In this document: piece after piece, positions 5,654 through 55,508 of the stretch
Layout: each line of letters starts with the position of its first letter
Position numbering within the stretch: the first letter of the stretch is position 1
Source of the DNA: Patescibacteria group bacterium
GTDB taxonomy: Bacteria; Patescibacteriota; Microgenomatia; UBA1400; MFAQ01
Assembly (NCBI GenBank): GCA_943355005.1
Contig: CALRDV010000002.1
Location: 64,397 to 128,396, forward strand
DNA length: 64,000 nt
Reading direction: 5' to 3'
Notes under the pieces: generated by a model
Told to the model about the DNA's origin: nothing
Database searches by the model: none
Seen by the model: only the letters and a program-made list of their open reading frames with translations
Position numbers and translations under genes: made by a program

Positions 5654-6325
5654 TCAATCATTAGGCTCGATTACAAACAAAGTCTGCCTGCCATACATGC
5701 CATAAAATTCTATACTTGACCACTCCTTCGTATAAATAGATTTCCATCCTAACTTCATAAATATTTTTATCCAATCTTCTGTTCTGTGATAATCATGGTG
5801 GTAAAACTCAAAGTTTCCAACAGAATCTCTAGCAGAAACCAAAAATCTTTCAAACTCATTTCTATATGTATCCTCTATTATCACTATTCTTTTGCAAACT
5901 CTCATAGTCTCCTCCAAAACCTTCATTGGATTAGAGCAGTGATGTAAGACGCAAATCAAAAGGCCGGTATCCATCGAACCGTTCTTTAATGGTAAGTTTT
6001 CACCATCATAAATTTTTGCGGTTATTCCCGGGTACAAGGAAGAATTTACGACATCAACTCCCACAACTTTGAACCTGCGGGAGATTAGTATTTTTGACAT
6101 AGATCCCGCGCCAACACCGACATCAAGAATTTTTGAACCAACAATATATTTCTCAAATAAATTAAATCTTGAACGGGCATTAAGCTCCATTAAACTTCTA
6201 GCTACTTTCCTTACAGTATTACCAATACTTCCACTTTTATTAATGAAATTTACAAAAGCTAATGCCGGCATTCCACATTCTACTTCACTTCTGACATCCG
6301 GGACAATAGAAAGTCCCCCTACCAC
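5654..6325 (-). CDS. Class I SAM-dependent methyltransferase
   Basis: ILDVGVGAGSMS motif I and overall Rossmann MTase pattern. Confidence 0.55.
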   Translation of the reverse strand: MVGGLSIVPDVRSEVECGMPALAFVNFINKSGSIGNTVRKVARSLMELNARSRFNLFEKYIVGSKILDVGVGAGSMSKILISRRFKVVGVDVVNSSLYPGITAKIYDGENLPLKNGSMDTGLLICVLHHCSNPMKVLEETMRVCKRIVIIEDTYRNEFERFLVSARDSVGNFEFYHHDYHRTEDWIKIFMKLGWKSIYTKEWSSIEFYGMYGRQTLFVIEPND

Positions 6326-7133
6326 CTTGTTTCATTTTCTTAATCTTATCTCCACATCTCTTACACACTTGTCCTTCTTTTTTATAAACCAAAAAATAAT
6401 CTTGGTATGTGCCACCCAATCCTGTCACTTGTACATAGTTACTGGCACTGGCTCCCCCGTACTTAATTCCCAATTTAATAATCTTAATTACGGAATCGTG
6501 CAATTTTTGAGATTCTTTTGGATTAAGACTATCCGCTTTTCTGTCGGGTCTAATTTCTGCATCATACAGAGCATCATTTACATAAATGTTTCCCAAACCA
6601 CCAATCTTATCTTGATCCAGAAGCAGAAGCTTTATTGGTTTTTTTGTCTTCTTTAATAAATCAAAGAAATATTCCCTGGTAAATTCTTTATCAATTACAT
6701 CCGGCACCAATGATTTCGCTTCTTTTTCATATTTATCTTTATCTACCACCCTCATCCACCCAAACACTCGCATATCATTGAAAAATAATTTCGATCCGTC
6801 TTTAAAAGTCCAGACAGCTCTTGTGTGTTTCGATGGTAATTCACCTACCCAGTCAGGACTAGGGTGTCCGCCCGATATTCTTTTTTCTCCAGTTATATAG
6901 ATAAGTTGTCCGGTCATCTTCAAATGGATAATCACAGAGTCCTCGATATTTTTAAATACTATCTGAATAACTTTTGATCTTCGCTTAACTTCTTCAATCT
7001 CAAATCCAAGTATCCTTTTGGGTACACCGGAAAAGCTTTTTTCCCTAAGCACTTCAATATCTGTTAACACCTTTCCTCTCAGTACTTCATCCAGCTGTCT
7101 TCTAATCGTTTCTACTTCAGGGAGTTCTGGCAT
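6285..7133 (-). CDS. mutM: Formamidopyrimidine-DNA glycosylase (Fpg/MutM)
   Basis: N-terminal MPELPEVE catalytic-proline signature, H2TH region, C-terminal zinc finger CKRCGDKI...CPGCQK. Start placed at the MPELPEV ATG (AAGGA upstream), not the longer ORF start at 7196. Confidence 0.85.
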   Translation of the reverse strand: MPELPEVETIRRQLDEVLRGKVLTDIEVLREKSFSGVPKRILGFEIEEVKRRSKVIQIVFKNIEDSVIIHLKMTGQLIYITGEKRISGGHPSPDWVGELPSKHTRAVWTFKDGSKLFFNDMRVFGWMRVVDKDKYEKEAKSLVPDVIDKEFTREYFFDLLKKTKKPIKLLLLDQDKIGGLGNIYVNDALYDAEIRPDRKADSLNPKESQKLHDSVIKIIKLGIKYGGASASNYVQVTGLGGTYQDYFLVYKKEGQVCKRCGDKIKKMKQGGRGTFYCPGCQK

Positions 7134-7134
7134 A

Positions 7135-7692
7135 CTAAAGTACGTCCTTGGGAGTAAATAATATCCATCCGGCAGAAACAAAACAAAGAAATGCAATTGT
7201 CACAAATAGAAAGTTAAATCCTAAACCACTAACAATAAATCCTCCAACAATAGACCCTAAAGCCATTACCAGGTTTGCCACCAGTGTCCAATCAGAGTAC
7301 TCCATCACCTCCATTTTTTTATTGGTATGTTTTGCAAATAATGCACTAAAAATCGGAGTCCCCAAAGAATCACCCAGCCCAAATACTATTTGAATTAATA
7401 TTAGGGCAAGAGCAGTATTAACAAATATCATTCCCAAGAATCCAAAACCTCTAATTGCGTAGCTGGCCGCCAATAATAATTTTTTTTCCTTCACCTCATC
7501 CCCTCTTTGAGACATAAGAATTAGGAATATTGTCGAGGATACATAGAACACTGCCGTCGTAATACTTACCAGAAGAACTCCTCCACCAATTTTTTGAACA
7601 TATACGGCATACAAAGGACCCAACAAAAGAGCGGCAAACAAATAAATCGCGTTACAAACAAACAGTATCTTTAGAGCCAGGTTATTTTTCAT
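7135..7692 (-). CDS. Polytopic membrane protein (6-TM, half-MFS-like)
   Basis: Six hydrophobic segments; no diagnostic motif recognised. Confidence 0.35.
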
Positions 7693-23518: not shown

Positions 23519-25891
23519 ATGCGTCCAAGCCACAAAGAAATACTTAAGAATATCGAGAAGAGTTATCAAAAACTCCTGGGAAGACGAAAATTTACCGCAC
23601 TCCAAATTATCCTGATTTTATCGGGACTATTTTTGATTTCACTATTTTTCTTGTTGAAAGATGTTCCCAGTCCTGCCAAATTAATCAAAACTCCCGCACC
23701 TGTTAGCACCAAAATTCTAGATCGTAACGGCAAACTCCTTTACGAAGTTTATTCAGATTACCGTCGCACTCCTATTGCGTCCAAAGATATTCCTGATTAT
23801 GTTAAAAAAGCCACTATTGCCATTGAAGATAAAAACTTTTACAAACATCATGGTCTGGACACCGTCGCCATTATTAGAGCTGCCTTCAACACCCTCAGGG
23901 GTAAAAGGCTCGAAGGTGGTTCTACCATCACCCAGCAACTGGTAAAGAACTCTTTACTCTCGGATCCAAGCCGAACTATCACCCGTAAAGTTAAAGAAGC
24001 CATACTCGCTCTAGTCACAGAATTTTATTACACCAAAGATCAAATCTTGGAACTTTATCTCAACCACTCTCCATACGGAGGTACAGTTTATGGCATAGAG
24101 ACAGCCGCCCAAACGTATTTCGGCAAATCAGCTAAAGACCTTGACCTTGCACAATCAGCACTACTAGCAGGGCTTCCTCAGTCCCCGACCCGATACTCAC
24201 CTTTCGGCGCAAATCCCGATCTCGCTATAAACCGCAAAGCCGAGGTTCTTAGACGTATGCAGGAAGATGGTTATATAACCAAAGAACAAGCTGATGCCGC
24301 TAAGAATGAAAAATTGGTTTTTGAAAAGAAGAATATTTCCATCAATGCCCCGCACTTCTCTCTCATGGTCAGAGATAGTTTGGTTCAAAAGTATGGTGAA
24401 GATAAAGTTAATATTGGCGGTCTAATAGTTACGACTTCACTCGATTTGGATTTACAAAATTATTTTCAAGCTTCCCTTTCGGCAGAGATGAACAAAATTG
24501 CTAAGCTCAAAATCAGCAATGGGGCAGCTATCGTTACGAAGCCAAATACAGGAGAAATACTGGCATTAATTGGTTCCAAGGATTATTACGACGATACTAT
24601 AGACGGTCAAGTTAACGTCGCCACTTCCCTGCGCCAGCCGGGCTCTTCCATTAAACCTGTCAACTACGCTACTGGATTACTAAATGGTTGGTCGGCAAGC
24701 ACTACTTACCTAGACGTCCCCACTTGTTTTACAGTCGCAGGCCAAAAACAATACTGCCCAAAAAATTATGACAGTACTTTCCGTGGACCGGTCTCTATGA
24801 GACAGTCACTAGCTAACTCACTAAATATTTCAGCCGTAAAAATGCTTGCTCTAAATGGTATAGATTCCTTCATTGCCACGGCTTCTGCTATGGGAATCAC
24901 TTCTTGGACAGATCCAAGTCGGTTTGGTCTCTCTCTGACTTTAGGTGGTGGTGAAGTCACCATGTATGACATGGCTAAAGTTTTTGGCACCTTTGCTAAT
25001 CAAGGTGTTACCGTTCCTCTTGTCTCAGTTCTTAAAGTTACCTCTTACGAAGGTCAAACACTCGAAGAATATCAGCCGGAAAAAATGGCCAACCTTGTCT
25101 CTGTTATGCCACTTAAATGGACAGATTTTTGGGATTATCAAAAAAATCCAGGCACCACCAACCCGACAGATCCAAAAGTCACACTTCCACTTGAAGTCCC
25201 TTTCATCATTTCCGATATCTTAGCTGACAATGGTGCCCGCTCAGCTGCTTTTGGCATAGGAAGTAAGCTTGTTATTCCTGGTCACTCCGTTTCAGTAAAA
25301 ACAGGCACCACAAACGATCTCAAAGACAACTGGACCATTGGCTACACCCCGGATTACTTAGCAGCTACTTGGGTAGGCAACAATGACAATTCTTCCATGA
25401 GTTACGTGGCTTCAGGAGTCACCGGTGCTTCACCAATCTGGAATACAATCATGAAAAAACTCCTCCAAAACACAAAAGACAGGCCTCTTTCCAAACCCGA
25501 AGGAATTACCAATTACCAGGTTTGCAACCTTACAGGATTTTTGGCTCAGCAAGAGAACCAGTGTGAGTCTCATTCAGAATATTTTATAAACGAGATGCTT
25601 CCACTCAGCCAAAACAACTTTCCATTAAAAAAGCAGGTTTGGGTTAGAAGGTCGGACAAGTATCCAATCCTACCCGGAGATGAAACCATTGATCGAGATC
25701 TAGAGGAGCACACTGTCGTATCCGATCCGTTTACCCAAGATTTTTGCCTAGACTGTGCCTACCCCGTAGATGACAAAGGTCATATTCAATGGCCACAAAC
25801 AGTTGTAGACTTGTCAAAATTTCAGTCTAGATTAGTTACTCCATTCAACTATATGCCCACAGTTACCCCGGAAAATGCTCCGCAAAATTAG
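23519..25891 (+). CDS. Class A penicillin-binding protein (PBP1A-type; GT51 transglycosylase plus transpeptidase)
   Basis: N-terminal TM; GT51 motifs EDKNFYKHHG and RKxxE; transpeptidase motifs SSIKP (SxxK) and KTGTT. Confidence 0.9.
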   Translation: MRPSHKEILKNIEKSYQKLLGRRKFTALQIILILSGLFLISLFFLLKDVPSPAKLIKTPAPVSTKILDRNGKLLYEVYSDYRRTPIASKDIPDYVKKATIAIEDKNFYKHHGLDTVAIIRAAFNTLRGKRLEGGSTITQQLVKNSLLSDPSRTITRKVKEAILALVTEFYYTKDQILELYLNHSPYGGTVYGIETAAQTYFGKSAKDLDLAQSALLAGLPQSPTRYSPFGANPDLAINRKAEVLRRMQEDGYITKEQADAAKNEKLVFEKKNISINAPHFSLMVRDSLVQKYGEDKVNIGGLIVTTSLDLDLQNYFQASLSAEMNKIAKLKISNGAAIVTKPNTGEILALIGSKDYYDDTIDGQVNVATSLRQPGSSIKPVNYATGLLNGWSASTTYLDVPTCFTVAGQKQYCPKNYDSTFRGPVSMRQSLANSLNISAVKMLALNGIDSFIATASAMGITSWTDPSRFGLSLTLGGGEVTMYDMAKVFGTFANQGVTVPLVSVLKVTSYEGQTLEEYQPEKMANLVSVMPLKWTDFWDYQKNPGTTNPTDPKVTLPLEVPFIISDILADNGARSAAFGIGSKLVIPGHSVSVKTGTTNDLKDNWTIGYTPDYLAATWVGNNDNSSMSYVASGVTGASPIWNTIMKKLLQNTKDRPLSKPEGITNYQVCNLTGFLAQQENQCESHSEYFINEMLPLSQNNFPLKKQVWVRRSDKYPILPGDETIDRDLEEHTVVSDPFTQDFCLDCAYPVDDKGHIQWPQTVVDLSKFQSRLVTPFNYMPTVTPENAPQN

Positions 25892-27166: not shown

Positions 27167-29491
27167 ATGGTAACAAAGAAAGAATCTAAAACAAACACCT
27201 TTCTCGCAGCTCTGGGTTGTCCTGTCTTTAAATTGTTCCTTTTCCTAGTTTCTCTAATTGGTTTTGCCTTAATTTTCCTCGACAAACTTTACAGTACTTT
27301 GTCATCCGCCTTGGCGGATCTATACAAATTAATTCCGATTTCTCGAATTAATTTAAACCTTAAAAGTTTATCAGAAATTCGCTTTCCTCAATTAAAGTAC
27401 CCTGTATTCCCCAAAGTTAAATTACTTAAACTTCGATACTTTCTTTTTGCATTATCCCTAACAAGTCTTTCTATTTTTACATATTTTGAATTCTTCAAAG
27501 GACTTCCGGACCCAAAATCATTACAAGATTTCCCCTCTAAGCTAACTACTCAGATTTTAGATCGAAACGGAGTTCTACTTTACAAAATCTATAAAGATGA
27601 AAACAGAACTCTTATTTCACTAGACACGCTACCTCAACACGTCAAGAATGCTTTCCTGGCCGCCGAAGACAAAGATTTCTATATTCACCAAGGCTTCTCA
27701 GTTCCAGGAATTTTCAGAGCCCTATATAAAAATATTTTTGATGACAGAGCAGAAGGAGGATCCACCATTACCCAGCAGCTAATCAAAAACACCATCCTTT
27801 CATCAGAAAAAACCATATCCAGAAAAATAAAGGAAATTATTCTCGCTATTAGAACAGAACGAATTTTTTCAAAAGACAAAATATTTGAGATGTATCTTAA
27901 TCAAGTAGGTTTTGGTGGTCCTGCCTACGGCATACAAGAAGCTTCCAAACAATATTTTGATTTGGATGCCAATCAACTTGATCTAGCCCAATCCGCCTTC
28001 TTAGCCGGACTGACCAGGGCTCCTAGCAAATACTCTCCTTTTGGAGATCAACCGGAGCTTGCAACTTCCCGCCAACAATTGGTACTCAATCAAATGTACA
28101 AAGACGGTTTCATTTCTGAAGCAGAATTACAAGCTTCACTAAATGAAAAGCTTGATTTCAAGTCAGCCAAAATTGAAATCAGAGCCCCCCATTTCGTCAT
28201 GCTAATCAAAAGCATTTTAGAAAGTCAGTTGGGTGAAAATAAAGTTGCCCAAGGTGGTCTAAAAGTTTTTACCACTTTAGATTCAAAACTTCAGGACGAT
28301 GTTCAAAAAATCGTAACAAGTGAAGTTGCATCTCTGAAAAATCTAAAAGTTAGCAATGGCTCTGCCCTAGTCACCAACCCTGAAACAGGAGAAGTCCTTG
28401 CCATGGTCGGCTCCAAAGATTATTTTGATCTCAAAAATAACGGTCAAGTAAACCTTACCACTTCTCTCAGACAACCAGGCAGTTCTATCAAACCCCTCAA
28501 CTACGCTCTCTATTTTGAAAATGGTCATGGTCCGGCCACCATAATTGATGATCGCCCTATCACCATTCATCTCTCCGGCCAAGAAGCGTGGACACCCAAA
28601 AATTACGATGGTCGGTTTCATGGAACTATAACCCTCCGACAAGCCCTTGGCAGCTCCTACAATATTCCTTCTGTTTTACTACTTGCTCAAAACGGCACAA
28701 CTAATTTCGCTGACTTTGCCAAAAACCTTGGCATCACCACATGGACAAATACTTCTCGATACGGCCTCTCAATGGCACTCGGAAGTCTAGAAGTAAGGAT
28801 GATTGATTTGGCCACTGCTTACTCTACTTTTGCCAATCAAGGATTTACATCACCTCTTCAAACTATTCTCAAAGTAGAGGAGCCAAGTGGAAAACAATTT
28901 CACCTTTCCGGCTGTCCAAATGGCAGCCCTAATCTGGCAGAGGGTAGCACCGTCAATGCCGAAGATAACAGCTGCAGTCCAAAAAGAACCATCTCTCCAA
29001 ACACCGCTTATTTAATTTCCGACATACTAAGTGACAATACTGCCAGAAGCCCGGCTTTTGGGAGCAATTCGATTTTGAATATCAAAAATGCCAAAGTAGC
29101 TGTAAAAACAGGTACCAGTAACGATCTAAAAGATAATTGGACAATCGGCTACACCAAGAACTTTCTTGTCGCCACTTGGGTGGGAAACAACGATAACTCG
29201 CCCATGTCCCAAATCGCCTCTGGTATCACCGGAGCATCCCCCATTTGGGCCAAGATTTTTAACAAAATTTTAGAAACCAATCACGAATCCACACAGCTTA
29301 TCGCCCCTGAAGACTTAATTAAAGTCCCTATCTGTCTTCTTACCGGAACTCTTACTTGCACAGGCTGTCCTACCAGAATCGATTATTTTGTCAAAGGAAC
29401 GGAACCCAAAAAAACCTGTGACCCTGTTGATATTCAAAACCGACTCCATCCATCAACACCGACTGTGCCACCAACCCCCCAAATCCTCTAA
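27167..29491 (+). CDS. Second class A penicillin-binding protein (PBP1A paralog)
   Basis: GT51 motifs EDKDFYIHQG; transpeptidase motifs SSIKP and KTGTS. Confidence 0.85.
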   Translation: MVTKKESKTNTFLAALGCPVFKLFLFLVSLIGFALIFLDKLYSTLSSALADLYKLIPISRINLNLKSLSEIRFPQLKYPVFPKVKLLKLRYFLFALSLTSLSIFTYFEFFKGLPDPKSLQDFPSKLTTQILDRNGVLLYKIYKDENRTLISLDTLPQHVKNAFLAAEDKDFYIHQGFSVPGIFRALYKNIFDDRAEGGSTITQQLIKNTILSSEKTISRKIKEIILAIRTERIFSKDKIFEMYLNQVGFGGPAYGIQEASKQYFDLDANQLDLAQSAFLAGLTRAPSKYSPFGDQPELATSRQQLVLNQMYKDGFISEAELQASLNEKLDFKSAKIEIRAPHFVMLIKSILESQLGENKVAQGGLKVFTTLDSKLQDDVQKIVTSEVASLKNLKVSNGSALVTNPETGEVLAMVGSKDYFDLKNNGQVNLTTSLRQPGSSIKPLNYALYFENGHGPATIIDDRPITIHLSGQEAWTPKNYDGRFHGTITLRQALGSSYNIPSVLLLAQNGTTNFADFAKNLGITTWTNTSRYGLSMALGSLEVRMIDLATAYSTFANQGFTSPLQTILKVEEPSGKQFHLSGCPNGSPNLAEGSTVNAEDNSCSPKRTISPNTAYLISDILSDNTARSPAFGSNSILNIKNAKVAVKTGTSNDLKDNWTIGYTKNFLVATWVGNNDNSPMSQIASGITGASPIWAKIFNKILETNHESTQLIAPEDLIKVPICLLTGTLTCTGCPTRIDYFVKGTEPKKTCDPVDIQNRLHPSTPTVPPTPQIL

Positions 29492-29518: not shown

Positions 29519-29578
29519 GTCATTCCGGGCTTGAATCGGCCGCTGATACCCGAAGGGGTAAATCCATCTGGAATCTAT
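29519..29578. repeat. GTCATTCC-hairpin repeat copy (variant unit)
   Basis: gtcattccgggcttga... shares the GTCATTCC-stem-CTTGA head with the copies at 41858 and 55476. Confidence 0.6.
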
Positions 29579-40772: not shown

Positions 40773-41408
40773 TTATTTCCCTTCTAATAGCTGCTTAACT
40801 TTATCAACGACAAATGGAGAGCCAACTTGTTCCCCATTGACAAAAAACGTTGGTGTTCCGGAAAGCCTAAGCGAATCAGCAAGTCTTGCGTCTATCGAAA
40901 CAAAATCGGAAACCTCACTTGATTTTAACTTTTCCTTAAATATTTTTTCATCCAAACCGAGGCTCTTCGCGTAACCGGCAAATAGATCTTCGGGTTTGCT
41001 GGAGCCGGACCACTCTTCTTGTTTTTCAAACATCAAACTCATCATCTCCCATCCTTTTCCAAGAACTCTTCCTGCTTCTACCGCTTTTGCTGAAATAAGC
41101 GCATATTTATGAACATTCGCAGGCAAGGGATAATGCCTCATCACAATTTTTACCCCTGGCATATCAAAAAGCTCTTTAGTTGCAATCTCTGCCGCCTTAC
41201 AAGATGGACACTGAATGTCTGAGAACTTAACCACCGTTACCTTTGTTTCTCCATTTTCTTTTACAAACCTAGCCCCATCAGTCAAAATCTTTTCATCTAC
41301 CTTAAGCTCCCCACCCGGCCCGGACATTTTTGACAAGCCCCAAATTATAAGTAGCAGTAGGACTGCACTTCCTATCGTAACTTTTAGTATCAATTTCCAA
41401 TCATTCAT
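40773..41408 (-). CDS. DsbA-like thioredoxin-fold thiol:disulfide oxidoreductase
   Basis: N-terminal TM; CPSC active site; thioredoxin fold. Confidence 0.75.
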   Translation of the reverse strand: MNDWKLILKVTIGSAVLLLLIIWGLSKMSGPGGELKVDEKILTDGARFVKENGETKVTVVKFSDIQCPSCKAAEIATKELFDMPGVKIVMRHYPLPANVHKYALISAKAVEAGRVLGKGWEMMSLMFEKQEEWSGSSKPEDLFAGYAKSLGLDEKIFKEKLKSSEVSDFVSIDARLADSLRLSGTPTFFVNGEQVGSPFVVDKVKQLLEGK

Positions 41409-41416
41409 AGTTTTTT

Positions 41417-41586
41417 GTCATTTCGACCGAAGTGGAGAAATCCCCCTCCACCATTGTCATTCCCGACCTGATCGGGAATCTATATAAATAAATTCTAATT
41501 ACTTTGTCATTCTGACCGAGTACTCGAGTGGAGGAATCTCCCTCCACCGTCATTGCGAAGCACGTAGTGCTGTGGCAATCCAGGCT
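41417..41586. repeat. Array of four tandem GTCATT-initiated hairpin repeat units between dsbA and iscU
   Basis: Units start at 41417, 41456, 41506 and 41549, each beginning GTCATT and containing a perfect short hairpin (for example ATTCCCGA-CCTGA-TCGGGAAT). The last unit overlaps the iscU stop. Confidence 0.8.
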
Positions 41587-42025
41587 AGTCATTACTATCA
41601 AATATCTTCAATAATGCTCTGTACGCGAGTGTAGCACATTTCATTCTACCTGGATTTATCTCCCCACCCAAAAGATCTACAATACCTGCTTCTCCAAATT
41701 TTTCCAAATCATCTTTACTCATCCCCACCACTTTTTCGGAAAGCATGCTGGCGGAAGCAGTAGAAATTGCACATCCTACTCCTTGCCACTTCATCTCCAT
41801 AATTACCTTTTCGTCATTGCGAGGAACGGAGTGACGTGGCAATCCAGGCTCATTTTTGTCATTCCGGGCTTGACCCGGAATCCATCCGGAAAATTTCACC
41901 TGTATCCGAATCATATCCCCACACGATGCATTCGACTCATCCATACTCACATCGGCATCATCAAGCGTCCCGAAATTCCTGGGATTTTTATAATGATCAA
42001 TGATTGTATCTTTGTAATCACTCAT
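41585..42025 (-). CDS. iscU: Fe-S cluster scaffold protein IscU/SufU-like, carrying an in-frame insertion of about 27 aa encoded by a repeat element
   Basis: HYKNPRNFG, ASCGDMIRI, GVGCAISTASASM and RMKCATLA motifs are all present. The foreign segment SGWIPGQARNDKNEPGLPRHSVPRNDE falls between the first and second Cys regions. Confidence 0.8.
   Translation of the reverse strand: MSDYKDTIIDHYKNPRNFGTLDDADVSMDESNASCGDMIRIQVKFSGWIPGQARNDKNEPGLPRHSVPRNDEKVIMEMKWQGVGCAISTASASMLSEKVVGMSKDDLEKFGEAGIVDLLGGEINPGRMKCATLAYRALLKIFDSND
41813..41889. repeat. Two GTCATT hairpin repeat units inserted inside the iscU coding sequence
   Basis: gtcattgcgaggaacggagtgacgtggcaatccaggct (41813-41850) is about 84% identical to the intergenic unit at 41549-41586. 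gtcattccgggcttgacccggaatcc (41858-41883) matches the units at 55476 and 29519. Confidence 0.8.
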
Positions 42026-42026
42026 A

Positions 42027-42668
42027 TTATTTGATTATTTCCACTATCTTATCGCCTATATGTATTGCAGATCCACCAAGGTGACCGTTATTATTACCCT
42101 TTATTATAAGTTTATTATTCTTTATTATAAAACCAATTTCCCTGCCAACACCTCCAAATCCAAAATCAAGCGGATACATTCCAAGTTCTATTTTATCTAT
42201 TGATATTGGCTTATTACAGAGATATTCACTATTCACTCCAGCCCTTCTTGCAAATACTTCATCGCTTAGGTGTTCACCAAGAATATTCCTTTCTTCAATT
42301 TCAAGCATCTCCAACAACTCTTCAGCATCTTCTTTAGGAATATAAAAAATGTTATCTTTTACAAATTGAAATTTCCAATAACCATTTTTATCATTTTGAA
42401 CTCTAGCAACGCCATCATTTGTCTGAAAATAAATGGACCCTCTATCTGTTTTAAATACATGTTTGAACTTCGATTTTTCAGATATTAAAGTGTCTATTTC
42501 TTTTTGCATCTCCTCCTGTCTCAAATCTAGATTAACTTTATCATCAAGAGCTATGTGTTTTGCCAAAAACACTTTTTTTAATCTATCAGAAATTTCTTCA
42601 ATCTTGTATGCTTCTACCCCAATATCTTCTACCTCATTTTTTTCAACCGGTTTATCCATATTACGCAA
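42027..42668 (-). CDS. Hypothetical protein embedded in the suf operon
   Basis: 213 aa ORF between sufS and iscU, overlapping the sufS stop; no motif recognised. Confidence 0.4.
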   Translation of the reverse strand: MRNMDKPVEKNEVEDIGVEAYKIEEISDRLKKVFLAKHIALDDKVNLDLRQEEMQKEIDTLISEKSKFKHVFKTDRGSIYFQTNDGVARVQNDKNGYWKFQFVKDNIFYIPKEDAEELLEMLEIEERNILGEHLSDEVFARRAGVNSEYLCNKPISIDKIELGMYPLDFGFGGVGREIGFIIKNNKLIIKGNNNGHLGGSAIHIGDKIVEIIK

Positions 42669-43952: not shown

Positions 43953-44435
43953 TTATTTTACCCCCTCAACCTCTTTTAAGAACCCCTCAACAATCAATTT
44001 TTTAGCTTCATCCAATTCAATTCCTCTACTCGCCATATAGAATAGTTGCTCATCATCTATTTTTCCAACCGTGGCTGCATGCGAAGCTTTAACATCATTA
44101 TTTTCAATCTCCAATTTTGGTTCGGCCACCGCACTGCTTTTTTTATCCAAAAGTAAGATTCTCATTTCCAAGAAACTATCCGTCTTTCTGGCATTTTTCC
44201 CAATTTTCACCATTCCGTCTACGACAACCCTAGCTCCGTTAGCCGCGACTCCTTTGATTACTATTCTGCCAAATGTATTTGTAGCTTGGTGATCAGACAC
44301 CACCTTTACCTTATAGTCACCGGGTTCCATGGCTGAAATCACTCCCAACACTTCTTGTTCTTCATGGGTTTCCAGAAATGGCACCACCAAGTCTATTTCC
44401 CCCGGTTTATCCAATTTAAATCTTTGTATTTTCAT
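43953..44435 (-). CDS. sufD: Minimal SufD/SufB-family protein (C-terminal beta-helix domain only)
   Basis: Matches the SufBD C-terminal domain (GARVVVDGMVKIG...KASHAATVGKIDDEQLFYMASRGI). Confidence 0.65.
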   Translation of the reverse strand: MKIQRFKLDKPGEIDLVVPFLETHEEQEVLGVISAMEPGDYKVKVVSDHQATNTFGRIVIKGVAANGARVVVDGMVKIGKNARKTDSFLEMRILLLDKKSSAVAEPKLEIENNDVKASHAATVGKIDDEQLFYMASRGIELDEAKKLIVEGFLKEVEGVK

Positions 44436-44461
44436 CTGATTGTATTTTCTTTGTTTTTATT

Positions 44462-44495
44462 GTCATTCCCGACCTGATCGGGAATCTATATAAAT
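44462..44495. repeat. GTCATTCCCGACCTGATCGGGAATCTATATAAAT repeat copy between sufB and sufD
   Basis: Identical to the unit at 41456-41489. Confidence 0.85.
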
Positions 44496-44503
44496 TATTC
44501 CAA

Positions 44504-45916
44504 TTAACCAACCGACCCTTCCATCTCTAGCTCTACCAATCTATTCATTTCTACGGCGTACTCCAAAGGAATTTCTTTGACTACCGGCTCCATAAATCCA
44601 TTTACAATCATCGTACTAGCCTCATCAGCCGTAATTCCTCTACTTTGTAAATACAAAAGTTGTTCTTCACTAACTCTACTTACGGTCGCTTCATGTTCCA
44701 GCACCACATCATTTTCTTGAATCTTATTTACCGGATAAGTATCAGACCGACTTTTTTCGTCGAGAATCAATGCGTCACAAACTACCTTAGACCTGCTCCC
44801 CCAAGCTCCGGGAACCATATGAACAATTCCCCGATAAGTCGCCCTTCCACCATTTTTACTTATAGATTTACTAATTATTTGCGAAGTCGTCTCAGGAGCC
44901 AGATGAATCATCTTTGCTCCGGTATCCTGGTGTTGCCCTTCACCCGCCCAAGCAATCGACAGTACTTCTCCATGAGCCCTTCTTCCTACCAAAACACACG
45001 AAGGATATTTCATCGTTAATTTGGACCCCAAATTACCGTCTACCCAGCGCATCTCAGCATCTTCCTCCACTCTAGCTCTTTTAGTCACCAAGTTGTAAAC
45101 ATTTTTAAACCAATTTTGAACAGTGGAATATTGGACCTTAGCTTTTTTCTTTACATAAATTTCTACCACGGCCGCATGAAGTGATGCCGAAGAGAATGCC
45201 GGAGCAGAACACCCTTCGATGTAGTGCATCTTACTACCCTCTTCGGCAATGATAAGTGTTCTTTCAAACTGTCCTGCATTCTCCGTATTAATCCTAAAAT
45301 ATGCTTGCAAAGGAAGTCCTACGTCAACATTTTTGGGTACATACACAAATGATCCACCACTCCAAACAGCGGTATTTAACGCTGCCAATTTATTATCTCC
45401 CATAGGAATCACTTTTCCAAAATGTTCTTTTACTATCTCAGGATATTGTTTCAGTCCCTCATCCATCGACAGGAAAATTACACCCTTTTCGGCCAAAGCT
45501 TTCTTGAGTGAACCATAAACCACTTCCGAATCGTATTGCCCCTTTACTCCAGCCAACATTTCTCTCTCGGCTTCTGGTACTCCAATCTTTTCAAAGGTGT
45601 TTTTAATCGCCTCCGGCACATCTTCCCAAGATTTTGCATCCTGAGTTTTTGGTCGGACGTAATAATGTATATCTTCAAAATCAATGGGGGATAAATCTCC
45701 ACCCCAAGCCGGCATAGGCATTTCTCTGTATTTTTTTAAAGCTTTTAAGCGAATTTCCAACATCCATTCAGGCTCTTCTTTAAGCGATGAAATCTTTCGT
45801 ACCAGCTCTTCATTCAGCCCTTTATCGGAAGTAAATGAATACTCTACCTTATCTGTATATCCCAATGGATAAGCTTTATCCTCAAGAAGCTTATTATTGT
45901 CTTGGGCATTACTCAT
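44504..45916 (-). CDS. sufB: Fe-S cluster assembly protein SufB
   Basis: Full-length SufB pattern of 470 aa, including the conserved C-terminal [10 protein letters not shown] region. Confidence 0.9.
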
Positions 45917-55475: not shown

Positions 55476-55508
55476 GTCATTCCGGACTTGATCCGGAATC
55501 TATATAAT
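55476..55508. repeat. GTCATTCCGGACTTGATCCGGAATCTATATAAT repeat copy
   Basis: Same head, tail and hairpin architecture as 44462 and 41456, with compensatory stem changes (CCGGA/TCCGG). Confidence 0.8.

Follow-up and report, generated by a model that had tools for sequence, protein, structure and literature searches.

GTCATT-headed hairpin repeats around the suf operon of a Microgenomates bacterium as probable CGTC-REP/NTS units, with identical units beside Ssn-like genes in other genomes

Repetitive extragenic palindromic (REP) sequences of the CGTC-tagged type consist of a CGTC or TGTC head, an 8-9-bp stem that starts with an A-T pair, a loop of 4-5 nt and a CCA-like tail (PMC3733652). Di Nocera et al. 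(2013, BMC Genomics 14:522) equated family CGTC-1 with dRS3, and CGTC-1 and CGTC-4 with RPE-6 and RPE-4, respectively; they also documented in-frame intragenic copies and noted that no dedicated transposase was known (PMC3733652). Here, we analysed a 64-kb stretch of a Patescibacteria contig (GenBank CALRDV010000002.1, positions 64,397 to 128,396 of the forward strand; hereafter the window), in which short hairpin repeats headed by GTCATT are clustered around the genes of a suf operon. A preliminary description of this DNA had presented them as a previously unrecognised family. This label has to be withdrawn, as the repeats fall into the already described CGTC-REP superfamily (PMC3733652), carry NTS flanks (PMC11893778) and occur as the same 25-mers at Ssn-like genes. 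We are highly confident that the units are members of the superfamily that unites CGTC-tagged REPs, dRS3, NTS, the Ssn-related motifs (SRM) and RPE-4 and RPE-6.

In Neisseria, the NTS, CGTCATTCCCGCGMAVGCGGGAATCYRG, encompasses dRS3 (Chenal et al. 2025, Nat Commun 16:2388, PMC11893778), and its head and flanks read CGTCATTCC...GGAATCYRG (PMC11893778). The nuclease SsnA, a 94-aa single-domain GIY-YIG protein, binds and cuts NTS as single-stranded DNA (ssDNA) only and on that strand only; the cut falls a few nucleotides upstream, with GTC serving cleavage and the C after the palindrome serving binding (PMC11893778). Genes for Ssn proteins are typically flanked by repeats, the repeat-rich genomes include those of Rickettsia and Wolbachia, and the published SRM search expression is HGTCWYN(0-2)YYVSBRHN(0-5)WNVSBRGN(0-2)RNCYNB (PMC11893778).

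The window holds ten hairpin units headed by GTCATT, where none are expected by chance, and all those listed in the preliminary description were present where it had placed them, on the plus strand. The bare hexamer is not enriched (37 observed versus 37.3 expected); the signal is carried by the whole unit. Four copies, at 41456, 41858, 44462 and 55476, follow the pattern GTCATTCCSGRSYTGAYCSGGAATC, here called type A, for which 100 shuffles gave an expectation of 0.00 exact matches. Type A has an 8-bp stem, ATTCCSGR/YCSGGAAT, and a 5-nt loop, CYTGA; written with its flanks, it reads YGTCATTCC-N11-GGAATC-YAK. Type B, (C)GTCATTGCGARG...GTGGCAATCCAGGCT (41549 and 41813), and type C, GTCATTYYGACCGA...GTGGAGRAATCYCCCTCCACC (41417 and 41506), have closing stems of 5 bp only (ATTGC/GCAAT and ATTTC/GAAAT) around a long interior of 12-20 nt. 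The head is CGTC at 41549 and 41813 and TGTC at 27301, 29519, 41417, 41456, 41506, 41858, 44462 and 55476. In all ten units, a GTC lies directly 5' of the palindrome and a C directly 3' of it, the two positions assigned to cleavage and binding in NTS.

Most of these units lie in operon spacers. The spacer that separates the stop codon of sufU (41585-42025, minus strand) from the beginning of a DsbA-like gene (40773-41408, minus strand) contains, at 41417-41586, four directly abutting units of three types, all with GTCATT first on the plus strand. They comprise a type C unit (GTCATTTCGACCGAAGTGGAGAAATC then CCCCTCCACC, 41417-41452), a type A unit with an AT-rich tail (GTCATTCCCGACCTGATCGGGAATC, 41456-41480, followed by TATATAAATAAATTCTAATTAC up to 41502), a second type C unit (GTCATTCTGACCGAGTACTCGAGTGGAGGAATCTCCCTCCACC, 41506-41548) and a type B unit that adjoins the sufU stop codon ((C)GTCATTGCGAAGCACGTAGTGCTGTGGCAATCCAGGCT, 41549-41586). 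This array was not reported by Tandem Repeats Finder because its units are heterogeneous. A further type A unit with an AT-rich tail lies in the 68-nt spacer between sufB and sufD (44462-44508), and another, GTCATTCCGGACTTGATCCGGAATC followed by TATATAA, lies between two co-directional minus-strand open reading frames (ORFs) at 55476-55506. Comparing the two suf spacer copies showed 88% identity over 50 nt (41453-41502 and 44459-44508), which indicates that the copied unit includes the AT-rich tail. The location at gene ends that had been proposed for most copies does not hold for 41813-41889, where a type B unit (41813-41850, plus strand; on the minus strand reading ...EPGLPRHSVPRND) and a type A unit with its tail (GTCATTCCGGGCTTGACCCGGAATC and CATCCGGA, 41858-41890, plus strand) lie in frame inside the sufU ORF.

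Two units of the plus strand deviate from the three types. The repeat at 29519-29575, 28 nt past the stop codon of a PBP1A-like gene, had been counted as a single unit; a repeat is indeed present, but it is a 57-nt variant ("type E") rather than a simple unit. It combines the type A head and 5' arm with a closing GGAATC, shares its first 16 nt and the 3' sequence GAATCCATCYGGA with the 41858 unit, and holds about 25 extra nucleotides in between, with their own TACCC-GAAG-GGGTA hairpin, so that it may represent a unit nested in a unit. A second copy of this variant, on the same contig but outside the window (L123, 19474-19530, minus strand), is the eleventh hairpin unit. The other deviating unit, GTCATCCGCCTTGGCGGATC (27301-27320) with the tail TATACAAAT (to 27329), emerged from a hairpin-anchored scan. 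In sense orientation, it coincides with aa 45-53, near the N-terminus, of the PBP1A-like ORF 27167-29491, between two hydrophobic segments, and is either a third translated unit or an indication that the true start of this ORF lies downstream. Hence, two of the ten window units are certainly, and one more possibly, located inside ORFs.

The structural claims of the preliminary description were largely borne out. Its three compensatory stem pairs (CCCGA/TCGGG, CCGGG/CCCGG and CCGGA/TCCGG) and the CTTGA/CCTGA loop are found in type A. Of the hairpins of 5-8 bp that it described, those of type A have 8 bp; types B and C close with 5 bp only and are weaker or take alternative folds. As ssDNA, type A is predicted to form a hairpin of -7.6 to -8.5 kcal/mol (z -2.7 to -3.7). 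The tail CTATATAA follows three of the four type A copies, where the stem is followed by CTA(TATAA), and CCA follows the 41858 unit and both type B units (CCAGG). Overall, the view of these repeats as short REP-like hairpins under selection for structure, mostly in operon spacers, holds.

The same units are spread far beyond this genome. Scanning one genome per species, with phylum groups assigned from record titles, we found the type A 25-mer pattern in at least 120 stretches, which represent about 18 phylum-level groups. Among the matches listed are about 15 Patescibacteria loci, Rickettsia and other Rickettsiales (L048, L087, L093, L111), Bacteroidota, Chloroflexota, Nitrospirota, Campylobacterota, Spirochaetota and Armatimonadota. 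The search pattern left two stem pairs free and did not force complementarity; nevertheless, these pairs were complementary in 136/136 and 127/136 of the listed copies (with G-T in eight more), and the stem as a whole in 135/136, G-T pairs included. The search for copies beyond the window, which had been set as a test of the family, was positive, with the hairpin preserved, and the proposed selection on structure is supported. The base before GTC was T in 67 and C in 61 of the 136 listed copies (128 in total), and the stem was followed by C and then CAG, CAT or CAC in 79. In many other genomes, a second, inverted unit follows after 10-25 nt, and such head-to-head doublets are common. In an Armatimonadota metagenome-assembled genome (MAG), one type A unit recurs five times without change at a perfect 47-nt period (L078, 5493-5705). 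This tandem array ends in an inverted unit of another type and is not CRISPR-like, as its 22-nt spacers are near-identical. Phages as carriers of the cross-phylum identity are not favoured, as both the type A pattern (43 stretches) and Ssn-like genes (four) are rare in IMG/VR. Two of the IMG/VR stretches (L226 and L255) hold 7-9 type A copies each.

We next compared these positions with those of Ssn-like genes. Ssn-like sequences served as tblastn queries, the first of them consensuses validated by matches that carry the Pfam domain GIY-YIG, and a profile scan of JGI metagenomes provided 80 Ssn-like loci, in which upstream units were counted within 250 nt. Two of the 120 type A loci matched the Ssn-like queries. 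In L038, the GIY-YIG ORF is bracketed on both sides, in inverted orientation, by the exact 41858 unit, and in L100 the GIY-YIG gene has the exact 41456/44462 unit on one side and, opposite to it, a canonical NTS-like unit. Among the Ssn-like loci, a unit was present upstream in 57/77, an inverted unit downstream in 52/74 and both in 42/71. Unit density reached 5.0 per kb near the Ssn-like gene compared to 0.24 per kb at distances of more than 800 nt, a 20-fold difference. Exact window type A 25-mers flank Ssn-like genes in L100 and L148 (41456 type) and in L131 and L038 (41858 type), B-like units flank such a gene in L142, and C-like units in L199, L208 and L137. At the level of sequence, we thus show that units identical to those of the window are physically associated with Ssn-like genes in other genomes. 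Some of the unit-flanked genes contain an in-frame stop codon (L100, 4378-4650, minus strand; L207, 3004-3270) and are possible pseudogenes.

Unit content also differs among syntenic relatives. Comparing the window with its syntenic relatives (L124/125, L126/127 and L128/129) showed that the sufB-sufD spacer, with its type A unit in the window, carries a different unit, GTCATTCCTGCGAAGGCAGGAATC, in L124 and none in L126 and L128. The sufU-dsbA spacer holds four units in the window, one decayed unit, GGACTTCTGCCTTTGTAGGAGTGAC, in L124, and one unit each in L126 and L128. In the sufU loop, the B and A units of the window correspond to none in L124, A only in L126 and a B-like unit in L128. Relative to L126, the window has one additional B unit of 45 nt at this site, which adjoins A on its 5' side in unit orientation. 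A similar polarity was apparent in a larger set (L130-L209, L002-L121 and L214-L256): half units, which consist of the GTCAT head and the 5' arm, precede 28/511 full units at a distance of up to 45 nt and follow 0/511 (examples in L136, L141, L165, L178, L003, L005 and L043), and no 3'-arm remnants were seen downstream of these 511 full units. Half-unit spacing is typically 18-24 nt, and Bacteroidales loci show runs of half units with a period of 21-22 nt. The B-before-A order in sufU and the polar half units suggest that arrays may grow in one direction, on the side at which Ssn would cut.

All 11 units of the window and the contig flanks (L122 and L123) lie on one, C-rich strand, irrespective of the direction of neighbouring genes, and the GC skew of this stretch is -0.16 to -0.36 throughout. 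Counted as seven independent loci, the probability of such a one-strand arrangement by chance is 2 × 0.5^7 = 0.016. Avoidance of the lagging-strand template by the cleavable strand was not adopted as an explanation because 121 units elsewhere showed no GC-skew bias (55 versus 66).

The copies within sufU provide a view of how a protein accommodates such units. This gene encodes a 146-aa Fe-S scaffold protein (Pfam NifU_N), and the B and A units at 41813-41889 add the minus-strand product SGWIPGQARNDKNEPGLPRHSVPRNDE, of which SGWIPGQARND derives from the type A unit. The insert comprises 27 aa between β-strands 37-46 and 74-83 and splits the NifU_N match in two, while the ORF and the three conserved cysteines (C35, C85 and C130) remain intact. 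An alignment of 38 SufU homologs showed conservation of the cysteines and the remaining fold, with the insert confined to one loop. AlphaFold2 assigned a pLDDT (predicted local distance difference test) score below 50 to residues 50-68, between two confident β-strands, compared to 84-93 for the core blocks and 77 for block 41-50, which reaches into the insert; in this model, the insert is a disordered loop in a β-hairpin. Flanking motifs were recognisable in 119 homologs, of which 49 have a basal segment of 17 residues and 70 have extra residues in this same loop. Many of these loop inserts read as translated repeat units of several unit families, including WIPGQARND, GLPRxARND, GVRLPHPDGIGVRND, GMDSRLRGND and MDPRIREDD. 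The nearest named SufU homologs, which come from Microgenomates group bacterium GW2011_GWC1 and from Candidatus Collierbacteria, place the host among the Patescibacteria/CPR.

The sufU genes of the relatives (L124, 8684-9079; L128, 10001-10441) also have loop inserts without GTCAT. One, TQKLKNSKTQD, stems from an 8-nt tandem repeat, ACTCAARA, that is also present between genes (L128, 7961-7997), and others are SPTSxKAxLGAGD-type peptides; these may represent other repeat families at the same tolerant site. At the 3' end of sufU, a head-only GTCATT (41588-41593, plus strand) overlaps the last codons and the stop codon of the gene and gives its last two residues (AAT GAC TAG on the minus strand, N-D-stop). 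A C-terminal ND is also found in 3/37 other aligned SufU homologs (P0010, P0036 and P0039).

These observations can be brought together in one mechanism. Each unit consists of a short palindromic DNA sequence, preceded by an unpaired 5' head, (Y)GTC, and followed by a C immediately after the stem. When the GTCAT strand becomes single-stranded, it would fold into the hairpin, and an Ssn nuclease of about 90 aa with a single GIY-YIG domain would bind this hairpin and nick that strand, with the nick a few nucleotides to the 5' side of the head. Hairpin binding and same-strand nicking are established for the Neisseria and Wolbachia enzymes, and in Neisseria this activity limits the integration of single-stranded DNA taken up by transformation (PMC11893778). 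Over evolution, copies would come and go and persist where they are tolerated, as in operon spacers, at gene ends and in surface loops of proteins. Overall, we regard CGTC-REP/NTS units of the Ssn type in a Microgenomates genome as the probable explanation of these repeats, and for an active Ssn partner acting on them in this very genome the balance is slightly favourable. The organism would then encode a cognate Ssn, its units would influence DNA uptake or recombination, and new units would arise 5' of existing ones.

Several results weigh against this explanation. With nine Ssn-like proteins as tblastn queries, an Ssn-like gene was found neither in the window together with L001, L122 and L123 (about 84 kb of the 255-kb contig) nor in the loci of the relatives (about 54 kb after removal of redundancy), and a profile search that returned at least 7,988 Ssn-like clusters gave no organism of the candidate phyla radiation (CPR) among its few named matches. 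Ssn-bearing loci with a resemblance to the proteome of the window were not found either. As ssDNA, types B and C are weaker and their minimum-energy folds partly use other pairings, with type C forming a downstream GTGGAG/CTCCAC hairpin instead of the 5-bp stem. Moreover, the window units are all head to tail on one strand, whereas CGTC REPs are mainly head-to-head dimers with a negligible share of head-to-tail dimers (PMC3733652), and the published NTS and SRM expressions have no match in the window. The SRM expression matches canonical NTS and NTSvar but also misses the CTTGA-loop units that directly flank Ssn-like genes; it is thus narrower than the biological family, and the mismatch in the window is no ground for exclusion. 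The lack of an Ssn-like gene in these 84 kb favours the alternative that the units are orphan relics of the same family, left after loss of the Ssn gene or brought in by transfer without it. As remnants of neutral or mildly selfish character, they would now be subject to drift and decay, with an occasional duplication through slippage or recombination. This would also agree with the decayed sufU-dsbA copy of L124, with the 19% of SRM-rich genomes that lack an SsnA homolog (PMC11893778) and with the proposal that the CGTC families may be heading for extinction (PMC3733652). Nevertheless, all four type A copies have perfect 8-bp stems, the two copies with 88% identity over 50 nt argue for recent copying, the varying content among syntenic relatives points to ongoing gain, and the search for an Ssn gene covered about one third of one contig. 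We therefore consider relics a serious but clearly less likely explanation.

The remaining alternatives carry far less weight. A role at the RNA level, in which the hairpins GAUUCC...GGAAUGAC of the suf-dsb polycistron would stabilise the mRNA or serve its processing or attenuation, as proposed for classical REPs, is improbable. The hairpins are stable and, as reported for REPs, most copies lie between co-directional genes near the upstream stop codon; but the units are not followed by U-tracts, terminator-like and promoter-like sites in the region do not exceed the shuffled expectation, and Rfam searches (gathering thresholds for the whole window; E ≤ 10 for 41300-42000) returned two tRNAs and one chance match only. 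An RNA function would also explain neither why head and tail are conserved and unpaired nor why the units are associated with an ssDNA nuclease gene, SsnA does not bind RNA (PMC11893778), and two of the units are translated. The absence of an Rfam match, the unmatched SRM expression and the lack of any mention of such repeats in Patescibacteria in the literature searched might instead point to a new lineage-specific MITE/REP family, separate from described ones. Such an origin is very hard to reconcile with identical 25-mers in about 18 phylum-level groups, with the fit to the published CGTC-REP definition and the NTS head and flanks, and with units that flank Ssn-like genes, and we consider it very unlikely. 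Miniature inverted-repeat transposable elements (MITEs) are elements of 70-300 bp with terminal inverted repeats and target-site duplications. The window units, by comparison, are single hairpins of 20-57 nt without terminal inverted repeats, and no target-site duplication was recognisable at the compared filled and empty sites, where divergence is high. Of the earlier term "MITE/REP-like", only the second half is therefore retained, and the Correia elements of Neisseria proposed for comparison, being MITEs, are not the relative, which in Neisseria is dRS3/NTS. Mobilisation as GTAG-type REPs or REPINs by a RAYT, an IS200/IS605-like Y1 transposase, would account for short tagged palindromes and for the frequent inverted doublets in other genomes. 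We give it hardly any credence, as the head is YGTC and not GTAG, the called genes of L001, L122 and L123 contain no Y1_Tnp or transposase domain (with window positions 13.6-31.6 kb outside these lists), and CGTC REPs never flank RAYT genes (PMC3733652). Least plausible of all are palindromic operators for a suf transcription factor such as the adjacent Rrf2-family regulator, whose gene lies upstream of sufC: perfect palindromes do cluster around the suf genes, but copies are also present at 27301, 29519 and 55476, inside ORFs and in identical form in about 18 phylum-level groups, and an orientation-specific head and tail are not an operator feature.

Returning to the explanation by Ssn-type units, its most speculative extension concerns their spread. 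The β-hairpin loop of Microgenomates SufU could be a recurrent landing pad for CGTC/SRM-type units, in which arrays grow directionally because copies are made where Ssn nicks, a few nucleotides 5' of an existing head ("nick-and-copy"). We regard this as doubtful, but if true, it would supply a propagation mechanism for a class of repeats, the mobilisation of which was left open by the 2013 work, and in naturally competent, DNA-scavenging CPR bacteria the units might gate the recombination of incoming ssDNA.

The genes around the units show some additional features. On the minus strand, the suf operon has the order sufC, sufB, a short sufD, sufS, an ORF without known function, sufU and the dsbA-like gene. 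The short SufD-like gene (43953-44435) encodes 160 aa that correspond to the C-terminal SUFBD core alone. Just upstream of it, on the minus strand (44439-44466), a -35-like ATGACA is provided by the head of the 44462 unit, 16 nt from TACAAT; promoter-like sites of this region are no more frequent than in shuffled sequence. The 213-aa ORF between sufS and sufU (42027-42668) has no Pfam match; it has a counterpart in L126 and none in L124 or L128. In L124, genes for a GDSL lipase and a 23S-rRNA-intervening-sequence protein lie between sufD and sufS (5958-7162). Finally, a direct repeat of 68 nt with 76% identity (24603-24670 and 28440-28507) is located in two neighbouring long ORFs and is not related to the hairpin units; it may represent paralogous coding sequence, as one of the host ORFs (27167-29491) is PBP1A-like.

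Compared to the literature searched, the Patescibacteria host, the SufU loop as a hot spot, the one-strand head-to-tail arrangement and the narrowness of the SRM expression are modestly new. The analysis removes a false "new family" from annotation and extends a known one to Patescibacteria. It also explains odd peptides in proteins of CPR and other MAGs (...WIPGQARND..., ...GLPRxARND..., ...MDSRLRGND...) as translated CGTC/NTS-type repeats. As the SRM expression misses the very common CTTGA-loop class at Ssn-like genes, current counts are underestimates. The SufU hot spot, the syntenic turnover and the polar half units together form a natural experiment on the spread of units and their tolerance by proteins. 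If a cognate Ssn exists in these bacteria, which depend on DNA uptake, the units could affect which incoming DNA recombines.

Among known systems, CRISPR arrays have one repeat that recurs unchanged, separated by unique spacers that are similar in length, and cas genes are usually nearby. The array at 41417-41586 is not of this kind, with abutting units of three types and no cas domains in the gene lists of L001, L122 and L123. Rickettsia palindromic elements were reportedly described by Ogata et al. in 2000 and 2002. They resemble the sufU copies in that a palindromic repeat lies in frame in an intact gene with its peptide in a surface loop, and the exact type A pattern is present in a Rickettsia genome (L093) and in Rickettsiales MAGs. 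The host phylum differs, as does the 27-aa head-to-tail pair of two unit types in SufU, and the relation to RPE-4 and RPE-6 rests on the equation made by Di Nocera et al. (PMC3733652). GTAG-tagged REPs, BIMEs and REPINs are likewise short tagged palindromes that form ssDNA hairpins, with a small enzyme gene flanked by the repeats; they differ in the head (GTAG versus CGTC) and in the enzyme (Y1 HUH transposase versus GIY-YIG nuclease) and are thus functional analogues.

Closer still are the CGTC-tagged REPs, with which type A shares the unpaired CGTC or TGTC head, the A-T start of the stem, the geometry of CGTC-2 and a short CCA-like tail, together with a location between co-directional or convergent genes and occasional in-frame intragenic copies. 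The stem and loop definition fits type A in full and types B and C only in part, and none of the four family consensus shapes covers B, C or the 57-nt variant. In three type A copies, the tail is CTATATAAAT instead of CCA, and the 2013 survey covered five phyla without Patescibacteria. The differences from NTS are the 8-bp stem with the 5-nt loop CYTGA, compared to CCCGCG-MAV-GCGGG, the host (a Patescibacteria MAG), the head-to-tail arrays on one strand, and the share of units in ORFs (2/10 and one possible, compared to 2% in N. meningitidis). In turn, the window units and NTS have in common an ssDNA hairpin, a defined orientation, clustering, the head (C/T)GTCATTCC and a YRG- or CCA-like tail. 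The flanks GTCATTCC...GGAATC(YRG) are identical in both, and type A matches NTS at every flank position.

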